Below, in pieces: positions 4,058 through 14,279 of a stretch of 64,000 nt of DNA. The position numbers and the translations under genes are program-made. The stretch lies in the NCBI GenBank assembly GCA_965113315.1, contig OZ220367.1, one strand, 5' to 3'. The stretch comes from Podarcis vaucheri (taxonomy: Eukaryota). Positions within the stretch are counted from its first letter, which is position 1. Every line of letters begins with the position of its first letter. Under the pieces are notes generated by a model. It was not told where the DNA came from. It ran no database searches and was given only the letters and a program-made list of their open reading frames with translations.

Positions 4058-7000
4058 CCTTCATGGATCACTGCCTTGCCGTGGCGAAGGGGCTTGAAGA
4101 ACTCAGAGAAGCTATGAACTACGCCGAGCAGGGCACACAAGATGAACAGGTCATAGTGGAGAGTTTTGACCAAACGTGATCCACCTGGAGTAGGAATCGG
4201 CAAGCCACTCCAGTATCCCTGCCAAGAAAACTCCATGGACAAAGACAACAGGCATATAAAAGTTATGACACTGGAAGATGAGCCCCTCAGGTCGGAAGGT
4301 GTCCAACATGCTACTGGGGAAGAGCGGAGGACAAGTACAAGTAGATCCAGAGCTGATGAAGCGGCTGGGCCAAAGCCGAAAGGACGCTCAGTTGTGGATA
4401 TGCATGGAAGCGAAAGGAAAGTCCAATGCTGTAAAGAAAAATATTGCATAGGAACCTGGAATGTAAGAACCATGAACCTGGGTAAGTTGGATGTGGTCAA
4501 AAATGAGATGGCAAGAATAAATATTGACATCCTGGGCATCAGTGAGCTAAAATGGACGGGAATGGGCGAATTCAGTTCGGATGACTACCATATCTACTAC
4601 TGTGGGCAAGAAACCCGTAAGAGAAATGGAGTGGCCCTCATAGTCAACAAAAGAGTGGCGAAAGCTGTACTGGGATGCAGTCTCAAAAATGATAGAATGA
4701 TCTCGATACGAATCCAAGGCAGACCTTTTAACATCACAGTAATCCAAGTTTATGCACCAACTACTGGTGCTGAAGAAACTGAAATTGACCAGTTCTATGA
4801 AGACTTACAAAACCTTATCGAAGTGACACCAAAGAAGGATGTTCTGCTCATTATAGGGGATTGGAATGCTAAAGTAGGGAATCAAGAGATAAAAGGAACA
4901 ACTGGCAAGTTTGGCCTTGGAGATCAAAACGAAGCAGGGCAAAGGCTAATAGAGTTCTGTCAAGAGAACAAGCTGGTCATCACAAACACGCTTTTCCAAC
5001 ACCACAAGAGACGACTCTACACATGGACATCCCCAGATGGGCAACATCGAAATCAGATTGATTATATTCTCTGCAGCCAAAGATGGAGAAGCTCTATACA
5101 GTCAGCAAAAACAAGACCTGGAGCTGACTGTGGCTCAGATCATCAGCTCCTTATAGCAAAATTCAAGCTTAAACTGAAGAAAGTAGGAAAAACCACTGGA
5201 CAGGTAAGATACAATCTAAACCAAATCCCTTATGAATACACAGTGGAAGTGAGGAACAGGTTTAAGGATTTAGATTTGCTGGACAGAGTGCCTGAAGAAC
5301 TATGGATGGAGGCTCGCAACATTATACAGGAGGCAGCAACTAAAACCATCCCAATGAAAAAGAAATGCAAGAAAGCAAAGTGGCTGTCCAACGAGGCCTT
5401 ACAAATAGCGGAGGAGAGAAGGCAAGCAAAATGCGAGGGAGATAGTGAAAGATACAGGAAATTGAATGCAGATTTCCAAAGAACAGCAAGGAGAGACAAG
5501 AAGGCCTTCTTAAACGAGCAATGCAAAGAAATAGAGGAAAGCAACAGAATGGGAAGAACCAGAGATCTGTTCAAGAAAATCGGAAATATGAAAGGAACAT
5601 TTCGTACAAAGATTACCATAATAAAGGACAAAAGTGGTAAAGATCTAACTGAAGCAGAAGACATCAAGAAGAGGTGGCAAGAATACACAGAGGAATTATA
5701 CCAGAAAGATATGGATGTCTCGTACACCCCAGGTAGTGTGGTTGCTGACCTTGAGCCAGACATCCTGGAGAGTGAAGTCAAATGGGCCTTAGAAAGCACT
5801 GCAAATAACAAGGCCAGTGGAAGTGATGGTATTCCAGCTGAACTGTTTAAAATTTTAAAAGATGATGCTGTTAAGGTGCTACACTCAATATGCCAGCAAG
5901 TTTGGAAAACTCAGCAGTGGCCAGAGGATTGGAGAAGATCAGTCTACATTCCAATCCCAAAGAAAGGCAGTGCCAAAGAATGCTCCAACTACCGCACAAT
6001 TTCACTCATTTCACATGCTAGCAAGGTTATGCTTAAAATTCTACAAGGAAGGCTCAAGCAGTATGTGGACCGAGAACTCCCAGAAGTGCAAGCTGGATTT
6101 AGAAGAGGCAGAGGAACCAGAGACCAAATTGCAAACATGCGCTGGATTATGGAGAAAGCCAGAGAGTTCCAGAAAGACATCTACTTCTGCTTCATTGACT
6201 ATGCAAAAGCCTTTGACTGTGTTGACCACAGCAAACTATGGCAAGTTCTTAAAGAAATGGGAGTGCCTGATCACCTCATCTGTCTCCTGCGAAATCTCTA
6301 TGTGGGACAAGAAGCTACAGTTAGAACTGGATATGGAACAACTGATTGGTTCCAAATTGGGAAAGGAGTACGGCAAGGCTGTATATTGTCTCCCTGCTTA
6401 TTTAACTTATATGCAGAATTCATCATGCGAAAGGCTGGGCTGGATGAATCCCAAGCCGGAATTAAGATTGCCGGAAGAAATATCAACAACCTCAGATATG
6501 CAGATGACACAACCTTGATGGCAGAAAGTGAAGAGGAATTAAAGAACCTTTTAATGAGGGTGAAAGAGGAGAGTGCAAAATATGGTCTGAAGCTCAACAT
6601 CAAAAAAAACGAAGATCATGGCCACTGGGCCCATCACCTCCTGGCAAATAGATGGGGAAGAAATGGAGGCAGTGAGAGATTTTACTTTCTTGGGCTCCAT
6701 GATCAGTGCAGATGGTGACAGCAGTCACGAAATTAAAAGACGCCTGCTCCTTGGGAGAAAGGCGATGGCAAACCTAGACAACATCTTAAAAAGCAGAGAC
6801 ATCACCTTGCCAACAAAGGTCCGTATAGTAAAAGCCATGGTTTTCCCAGTAGTGATGTATGGAAGTGAGAGCTGGACCATAAAGAAGGCTGATCGCCGAA
6901 GAATTGATGCTTTTGAATTATGGTGCTGGAGGAGACTCTTGAGAGTCCCATGGACTGCAAGAAGATCAAACCTCTCCATTCTGAAGGAAATCAGCCCTGA

Positions 7001-11690: not shown

Positions 11691-12788
11691 TCACATCAAC
11701 TTGCTGTGTGTGTGTACACTTGTGCATGTGTGAAGCATGTCTGTGTACATTAAGAGTGTGTGATTGTGGCCACTTATGCAGCTTCTGCTGCTCCCACCCA
11801 GTTTTCCACAGAGGTAACATGGCCCATTGTCAGAAAAAGATTCCCTGTTTCTGATTTAAGAGAGCTAGAAGAGGTGCAAGTAACCAAAAGACAGATTAAA
11901 GGAAAAGGCTCTATAGGAAAAATCTGATTCCAGAACTGGCAATATAGGTTGCTCCGTGATTTGACTGTCACACAGCGAAGCTTGGAGGGCATAGTCTACT
12001 CCGACCACTTAGCTATTGCCAGTCCACTTGAATTGCTGATTTCCTTTCATATTGCTCCTTTATCAGAGAGTCCAGGAGTCAGCATTTTACTGTTCTGTAT
12101 TGCTACCTAGCGTTTGCCTTCCTATGGCCATCTCTTTGAGTTGTTTGCTTGTACATTTGTTGCTCTCGTTCACTTTAGCCTCTTAATGAGATTATATTTC
12201 CCCTGCACTTTAACTCAGTTCTTTCATCTTTCAGAATACCTCTCAAGACCTCACCTTTTCTTGTAGATTGTCGGATAGCCAGCACCAAACAATGATTCCT
12301 AAGGTAAACATGCACTCTCCAGCTCATTCATTCTCTCTCTAAAACTATTTCTAGTTTGCAGTCTCCTCTCTGACTAGAAAGGAGAGGATAAGGATGAAGA
12401 ATCTTCTCCAACCATGTCCACACCTAGGCATTTGACCTATAATTCTCCTAACAGAAGGTGTTCCTGGAAACTATATAGTTCCAAGTAGTCCTTCTGGCTC
12501 CATTAATCCATTCCTGTGCTAACCCCACAAACTTACAATACATTACATATTTTTGCATAGCCGTATGTCCCTTCTCCATATTTCTCCTTGCTCTTTCCTG
12601 ATGCTTTGCCCTTAGCATTTATTTATTTAGATTCATTTTCTGCCTATCATCAGTTTTATGACCCCAGAGTTAATAATAGCTTGATTGTAAGCCTTCAAGC
12701 TGGCATGAGGTTTCAGTTATGATGGTGATATCTGTGGTTACGGTATCAGTTTAAGCGTTATAGAAACAAGCAAACAAATAAAGGACTA

Positions 12789-13089
12789 AAAAATAGTCCA
12801 GTAGCACCTTAGAGACCAACTAAGTTTGTTCTAGGTGTAAGCTTTCACGTGCATGCACACTTCTTCAGATACACTGAAACAGAAGTCACCAGACCCTTAT
12901 ATATAGTGGGAGGGTGGGGTGGGTCTATATATAAGGGTCTGGTGACTTCTGTTTCAGTGTATCTGAAGAAGTGTGCATGCACGTGAAAGCTTACACCTAG
13001 AACAAACTTAGCTGGTTTCTAAGGTGCTACTGGACTATTTTTTAATTTTTAATTTCAACTGCGTCAGACCAACACGGCTACCTACCTGA
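12789..13089. mobile_element. Penelope-like element remnant: inverted pseudo-LTR fold-back
   Basis: About 119-bp inverted arms (12788-12906 and 12925-13043, 2 mismatches); sequence resembles reptile Penelope pLTRs; 13-bp TSD aaataaaggacta at 12776-12788 and 13090-13102. Confidence 0.8.
12955..12997 (+). ncRNA. Minimal hammerhead ribozyme-like motif (mirror copy on the minus strand in the left arm)
   Basis: CTGAAGA (12963-12969), palindromic stem GTGTGC-AT-GCACGT, GAAA (12985-12988), then GCTT; matches the minimal type I hammerhead layout of Penelope-like elements. Confidence 0.6.
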
Positions 13090-14279
13090 AAATAAAGGAC
13101 TACTTGCTAGACTATAGGCTGTATTCTTGCCAGGATGGTTTTAGAAGAATGAACCACTATCAAATCCAGGCCCCTGTCAGCTTAGGAGGAAGAAAATAAG
13201 AGAATTAGAAAAGCAAACAGAAGGAACAACTCTGTGACTCAGAGGAAAGCCACAGATTGAAGAAACAGCAATTTCTCAGCAAAGAGAGAGAACAGGAGGG
13301 ACACAGCAGAGCTTAATAAAAACAACAACAACCCCAAAACAGTTTGTTCTCTTGCAGAAGGAACTACAAACTAATAGAATATTAGGGTTTGGCGAAAGCA
13401 ATAGGATTGGCAGAAAGAGCAGACTGGTTGAAGAAGAATAACTGACTGTAAGGAGCTGTGAGTTAGGTAGAAAGTAGTTAAGAAAGTAGCTATTTAAAAA
13501 ATGTAAATTGGCAAGGTGCCCAAAAAACCCACCCAACAACCCCGAAAACACACATGATGATGTGCTATCATCAACAGACGCTCATCCAATATAACAGATC
13601 ACTGTTCTCACTTTGCAGCCTTTTTTGTATGTCATCTTGGCTAAGAAATCAAAGTTTTGCTTAGGAGTATATACTTTCCTTTTTGCTGTAAAGGTCAGTG
13701 AGCATCAAACTTCATCTGACATCTAATTATGCCAGTAAAAGTGTGTGAACAAAGAAATGCCAACTTACTTAAATAGCATATAACAAACACTTGTCCCCAG
13801 TGTTAATGAACCGGATAACAAAGGCAAAACTATGCAAACACTATAATTTACAGACAAGATGACACAGATTTACTTCAATTTACTTTTCCTTGCAATGCAC
13901 TTGGTTTTGAAAGGCCATTCCATTTTTCAAAAAGGCCATATTTGCTCACAACTTTCCCGAAAGCTTCCCTGGAACATATTTTAATCAACATATTTTAAAA
14001 CAGAAGGCATGTTAATTTGGGATTTTCTATGCTCTTGTCCCACAGTACCAATATTAGTAGTGAATTGCTTGTGAAACTGCTCCCCTAAAGAGGCCCACCA
14101 GGTCTGGTCTTTGATAAGTTTTAGGAAACTGGCAAAGGTATTTCTGTTGCATCTGGTTGTCAAACAAATTGCTTTTAATTGTCTATTGTCTAATTGACTA
14201 TTCTGTTATCTTTATGCAGCTTTCTTTTTAACTATCATTTTCCCTACTTGATGGATGTTATTTTAAGTTGTATATAGCT

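Follow-up and report, generated by a model that had tools for sequence, protein, structure and literature searches.

A head-to-head Penelope-like stub in Podarcis vaucheri, probably twin-primed, with a G-quadruplex motif at its hairpin tip

The insertion between positions 12776 and 13102 of the window (the whole stretch of 64,000 nt of contig OZ220367.1 that was analysed) is a dead, 5'-truncated, head-to-head stub of a Penelope-like retrotransposon (PLE) of the Neptune clade, with the architecture typical of such elements. It was probably made by the element's own enzyme nicking both target strands 13 bp apart, with one cDNA primed at each nick; the G-quadruplex (G4) motif at its tip would have had little or no role in this and the hammerhead would be a passenger. 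The insertion is real and ordinary, one dead stub among thousands, and has little weight as a locus. Data from the family as a whole help modestly with the question of how Penelope-like elements insert.

Architecture and family of the insertion

The architecture, the family membership, the one-sided tail and the target site duplication (TSD) are seen directly. Re-measurement returned the inverted arms of the initial annotation, 12788-12906 and 12925-13043, 119 nt apiece with two mismatches (12814/13017 and 12819/13012), a hairpin far beyond chance expectation. The 13-bp TSD was also borne out, with copies at 12776-12788 and 13090-13102 (plus strand); base 12788 is common to the left TSD and the left arm. 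The 18 nt in between (12907-12924) had been described as a spacer forming a G4 with 1-nt loops. The coordinates, the letters and the motif stand, but the third G-tract has four Gs, giving loops of 1, 1 and 1-2 nt, and the stretch is no spacer. It is the left arm continuing, on the minus strand, into upstream sequence that belongs to the element itself; the true extent of the left arm is 12789-12923. This inverted, tail-less, 5'-truncated pLTR arm runs from the inner site, at a T-tract, to the G-tract and, on the minus strand, aligns with reference positions 1-148. The G4 motif (12908-12923, plus strand) is the antisense of a C-rich tract upstream of the TATA box, which in family copies lies directly upstream of CTATATATAAG; the motif is fixed in subfamily B1. 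A single junction T (12924, gap 1) separates the arms, which have no microhomology. The direct arm (12925-13089, plus strand), likewise a 5'-truncated pLTR, ends at the outer site and has 89-93% identity to the other best family copies; its 5' end lies at the edge of the TATA-like, self-complementary TATATATAAG (12926-12935, plus strand). Absent from the initial annotation were 46 extra nucleotides found on the right arm only (13044-13089, plus strand), a one-sided tail between two putative reverse-transcription start sites.

The Penelope-like origin proposed earlier is supported by the inverted pLTR, the one-sided tail, the TSD and a GIY-YIG domain in longer copies of the family; an inverted 5'-truncated copy with a one-sided tail and a TSD is a typical Penelope-like insertion (PMC8557442, PMC3846280). 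About 2,770 candidate relatives of the right arm were counted in the genome (1.6 Gb), and the window contains no second copy of the family. Three subfamilies were distinguished, B1, to which this copy belongs and whose consensus has a canonical G4, and B2 and A, in which the first G-tract is broken. The GIY-YIG domain (PF01541), known from longer family copies and not from this stub, is C-terminal and upstream of the pLTR; it scored 27.0 bits at locus L208 (cut-off 22.6) and 21.7 bits (E=2.5e-4), slightly below the cut-off, at L151 of subfamily B1. A CNKPRCQLC linker (CX4CX2C) precedes the domain in 8 of 14 segments among those listed; it was seen in copies of A and of B2 and at a single B1-anchored locus, L031. 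A CX2-5CxxC linker between reverse transcriptase (RT) and endonuclease (EN) is assigned to Neptune and Nematis in PMC8557442, and the placement in Neptune, made by linker type and not by a tree, is probable on that basis. The YxDD matches in the family loci examined belong to an unrelated LINE, and the loci stop short of the RT core. Tandem-type copies (L135 and L033) run past the tail into an ORF start, MEG..KKLAQ, that is absent at this locus; from L135:1724 onward the tail is followed by the open ORF start (MEGTTLSRMKWK...).

Several further observations concern the surroundings and the family at large. The eight ORFs scanned for a host gene gave LINE domains and one sub-threshold DUF only. 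At 4157-6718 (plus strand) an open frame of 853 aa that encodes an AP endonuclease and an RT domain is a well-preserved LINE piece. At 12235-12303 (plus strand) a 69-nt open stretch from a CAG acceptor to a GT donor is, by eye, a possible exon; its depth is zero in the RNA runs described below. The TATA box of the family has been hit repeatedly, always at one position, by a different element whose end reads GGTACCACTG or a close variant (L221, L223, L255, L280, L310, L346, L096, L402 and L411). One fold-back insertion recurs in at least 11 copies (L003, L014-L017, L019 and L025-L029) that have their right flank in common; they lie in a segmentally amplified region, G000:C29:72.7-75.8 Mb.

The hammerhead motifs and expression of the locus

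One hammerhead motif per strand was confirmed, CTGAAGA...GAAAGCTT beginning at 12963 (plus) and 12868 (minus). The right-arm motif occupies 12959-12996 (plus strand) and the identical left-arm motif 12835-12872 (minus strand). The minimal form (CUGAAGA, GAAA, AGCU, N17=U) was recognised by hand against the description in PMC4209133. In the right arm, stem I (12959-62/12993-96) has one mismatch; the core at 12963-69 is followed by an extra A, then by stem II (12971-84) with two G-U pairs at its base, GAAA and the AGCU palindrome, and the predicted cut falls after 12992. The G-U wobbles of stem II and the mismatch of stem I, both noted previously, are found in both arms. The CUGANGA / GAAA / UH core with a palindromic stem III is accompanied in both arms by a stem I with one mismatch and by the lack of a G10.1-C11.1 pair; this stem and this pair are intact in all three consensus sequences. 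Stems I and II together reach -1.0 kcal/mol here against -6.8 in the consensus; the full hairpin reaches -217 kcal/mol. The hammerhead-model check gave no hammerhead match in Rfam at the gathering score or among 11 matches at E<=10, a result to be expected of a minimal form without helix III. Sub-threshold Rfam matches to miRNA hairpins were discarded, being caused by the perfect stem.

Because the two hammerheads are on opposite strands no intramolecular dimer can form. Whichever way the locus is transcribed, the RNA contains a single sense hammerhead that follows its antisense partner; a dimer in cis is therefore impossible and folding is unlikely. The hammerhead is predicted to be a silent passenger here.

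The initial annotation had a transcript in either direction folding as a ribozyme, as long dsRNA for Dicer or ADAR, or as a G4. The near-perfect hairpin is indeed predicted. The G4 is carried by the plus strand transcript only. That the locus acts as an RNA element, be it ribozyme, dsRNA substrate or G4 switch, is nevertheless exceedingly improbable. In its favour, a transcript would fold into a near-perfect hairpin of 118 bp, and the insertion is apparently present in runs that bear other organism names: under three such labels, contigs pass from the left flank into the element (28 nt), and contigs from all four runs do so from the right flank (about 25 nt), both overlaps being below the 31-nt rule. 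Since these contigs enter the element, the insertion appears older than the splits concerned. Against it stand the mutated hammerhead, which comes after its antisense arm in a transcript of either orientation, and the RNA reads. Depth was zero on the unique flanks (12074-12775 and 13244-14179) in three raw RNA runs from a related organism, of which 6-12% of each was covered, and the Dicer/ADAR idea found no support there. In the two bulk runs among them every read over 12848 has the letter of the family and not that of this copy; the reads on the element come from other copies. No RNA dataset was listed for the locus.

Turning points of the fold-backs and the G-tract

Fold-back is the routine outcome of insertion in this family, and long-armed fold-backs such as this copy are a minority. 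At least 3,127 head-to-head fold-backs were found genome-wide with an exact two-arm pattern (100-330 nt between cores), most of them of subfamily A and without a canonical G4, and 272 with a B1-type pattern (0-260 nt between cores). Of the 50 listed of these 272, 2 span 200 nt or more; this copy spans about 240 nt. The first 100 core matches, out of 2,586, included 16 head-to-head pairs and no tail-to-tail pair within 2 kb.

The dominant turning point is the front edge of the hammerhead. In 86 fold-backs, 92 ends lie between anchor positions 1 and 81. Of these, 23 fall at positions 16-19, where stem I has its first base, 28-31 nt below a TATA box (TATATAAG; window equivalent of the positions 12956-12959, plus strand), and 3 at positions 1-15. 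Another 3 lie at the ribozyme cut (52-54), with no peak. What the arm ends mark is likely a capped RNA start, at the hammerhead's first base, and not ribozyme cleavage. An extra G is present in 14 of 17 arms starting at G19, as would be expected from copying a cap. An extra T is present in 11 of 13 G17 starts. In four DNA runs all 15 listed joints (of 269) end at 12956-12965 and 14 start at 12871-12877; none of the 15 is at the G-tract and none is an empty-site joint. A 3' splice site at the same edge is a possible alternative to an RNA start, by analogy with D. virilis, where an intron end maps to helix I (PMC4209133). The D. virilis Penelope has an internal, TATA-less promoter (PMC2377424), from which a TATA-driven start of the present family would depart in its details. 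In this copy the putative RNA start is read through on both arms. A larger cluster of ends, 14 with 112 at risk, was seen 97-107 nt upstream of the anchor of the B1 consensus, where there is a short direct repeat and no G4.

The G4 had been proposed as a possible cause of stalled reverse transcription and thereby of the fold-back, with clustering of inversion breakpoints at the G-tract as a check. The loop does have four G3 tracts with short loops, its G4Hunter score is 2.4, a G4 is predicted for B1 only and not for B2 or A, and the two ends of this copy bracket the motif exactly. Stalling is mostly unsupported all the same, and the sister subfamilies without a G4 fold back abundantly. The G4 is on the cDNA strand and the sense RNA template has none, so first-strand synthesis could not be stalled in the usual way; the product is the G-rich strand, and the only routes open to a G4 would be to fold within the new cDNA or to block its trimming.

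Upstream ends were mapped for arms reaching the TATA region, 189 of B1 (own locus excluded), 120 of B2 and 79 of A. The arms were taken as 100 of 749 matches, 49 among those listed of 3,851, 100 of 141, 66 of 87 (11 segmental duplicates and the last 10 left out), 50 of 50, 30 of 38 and 30 of 140. The count of ends leaves aside later insertions (15 of 187 in the first B1 set), internal deletions (2 of 187) and arms exceeding 294 nt (25 of 187). Also removed were 3 arms of no clear class and the ends at 9-12, which often reflect a different element that landed in the TATA box afterwards. Alignment places an end to within a few nucleotides, and a TSD was detectable in only 15 of 75 B1 ends of the flank type.

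No peak at the G-tract was found within the family. The G4 zone of B1 (13-41) holds 28 ends, 1.09-fold the background (p=0.38), and 0 of the 38 ends of 19 B1 fold-backs not chosen for long arms. Starts at C-rich sequence are depleted outside the G4 zone too (2.3 against 5.2 per 1000 nt, p=0.0006). Ends 13-22 nt upstream of the anchor are found in 12 of 177 B1, 6 of 111 B2 and 0 of 78 A arms, the TATATATA palindrome being broken in A. A B1-specific excess there was rejected, as the B2 rate is the same and the ends follow the palindrome, which explains the end of the right arm without a G4. As the main hotspot the G4 is rejected and for fold-back it is not needed; its causal role is mostly unsupported, with a weak bias possible.

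Such a bias would take the form of a twin-primed insertion in which a G4 in the nascent G-rich cDNA, or one blocking 3' trimming, ends the longer cDNA after the fourth G-tract. This is unlikely, though some of the evidence points its way. In the window just past the tract (31-41), which was picked after a pilot, ends numbered 15/160 in B1 against 3/177 in the sisters B2 and A together (p=0.003), a contrast that also appears as a share of all ends (p=0.012) and among fold-back ends only (5 of 160 against 0 of 177, p=0.02). The RTs of Penelope-like elements are relatives of telomerase. In telomerase, G4 folding of the nascent product modulates dissociation (10.1101/435545). On the other hand, the initial contrast of 15/156 against 0/94 weakened when fresh controls gave 3/83, and the fresh controls alone give p=0.13. 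The 15 B1 ends amount to 1.5-fold the B1 background (p=0.07), and in a scan within B1 the window does not stand out (P=0.99). Eight of them lie in or after a B1-specific A5 run (37-41), which confounds the contrast with the sisters, leaving 7 at the tract edge (p=0.32); over 23-41 the B1 ends are at background (5.4 against 5.8 per 1000), and the larger peak at 97-107 has no G4. The cDNA would moreover be paired with RNA during synthesis. Literature titles on Penelope and G4-linked truncation showed nothing on the topic. If true, a cDNA G4 would make a telomerase-related RT let go just past the G-tract, as for telomerase, and the weak bias would link PLE truncation to telomerase-like product folding. 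In that case the three sister subfamilies, whose first G-tracts differ by 1-2 bases, would amount to a natural experiment on G4-driven termination, and a one-base control could test the link.

Origin of the fold-back and comparison with known systems

Twin priming is suggested by the patterns of ends. The 86 fold-backs scored come in part from unselected sets and in part from sets that required either one long arm or a gap of minimum size. Exactly one arm has the tail in 77 of the 86, and an exact TSD of at least 7 bp was present in 61 of 77, its length being 12-13 bp, the peak, in 31 of these 61. The tail arm is the longer arm in 34 of 75 fold-backs (34 against 41, p=0.49). This independence of tail side and loop side favours two cDNAs on both nicked strands over self-priming of a hairpin, and because the loop belongs to the tail-less arm neither arm is a plain copy of the other.

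In the proposed sequence of events, the enzyme would nick the two target strands with a 13-bp stagger and each nick would prime a cDNA. The template would likely be a read-through RNA from an upstream copy, because both arms extend past the putative RNA start. The top-strand cDNA would begin at the inner start site and stop after the G-tract, and the bottom-strand cDNA would begin at the outer site, adding the tail, and stop at the TATATATA palindrome. The two ends would then be joined almost blunt. The G4 would form the loop because one cDNA outran the other by that stretch.

The variants shared by the arms count against the twin-primed explanation. The arms share 4 departures from the consensus and have 2 private ones, the highest ratio among 26 B1 fold-backs, which together have 16 shared and 133 private departures. 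The shared variants of this copy sit at 12983-12994 and, mirrored, at 12837-12848. No source copy with them was found elsewhere in the genome. One mutated template or later copying from arm to arm both fit; general arm-to-arm conversion was not seen, as CpG sites read TG/TG in 4 of 24 B1 pairs, with about 3 expected. The shared variants, together with a loop that consists of the G4 and one T per side, would suit a self-primed fold-back, in which one strand ends at the G4, the G4 caps the hairpin and the strand primes its own copying, as the initial annotation had it; an antisense-template variant has been inferred from palindromes at inverted junctions (PMC3846280). This origin is very improbable, as 46 nt of the right arm are missing from the loop-bearing arm, most fold-backs have no G4 at the junction, and self-priming on either cDNA or antisense RNA predicts the fixed link between tail side and loop side that the counts of 34 and 41 do not show.

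Two priming sites on both strands have a parallel in an element of the anole. In vitro, both strands are cleaved and extended and two start sites bound the tail (PMC11167929). This element, PAc, a Poseidon of Anolis, also agrees in that hammerhead cleavage is unneeded; it differs in belonging to another clade, and the account of it consulted (PMC11167929) describes no joining of two cDNAs into a fold-back. Literature titles on Penelope twin priming of inverted copies showed nothing on the topic, and such hairpins are not treated in the available portion of 10.64898/2026.07.22.740005.

Dual hammerhead motifs 100-700 bp apart on opposite strands have already been noted in PLEs (PMC4209133). The motif described here shares with the minimal hammerheads of metazoan PLEs the core boxes, the extra base between 9 and 10.1, the long stem II, the short stem I and the palindromic 15-16; unlike in these, the conserved G10.1-C11.1 pair is G-U and the mismatch of stem I adjoins the core (PMC4209133). 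With the insertions of EN+ PLEs (PMC8557442, Fig. 2 legend; Pen2a_Av of Adineta, PMC3846280) this copy has in common the head-to-head inverted pLTR, the tail at one end, the TSD, TATATATA in the pLTR and arm ends a short distance apart. It differs from them in having no ORF, in a tail of 46 nt where theirs are 30-40, and in an overhang that happens to be a G4 motif.
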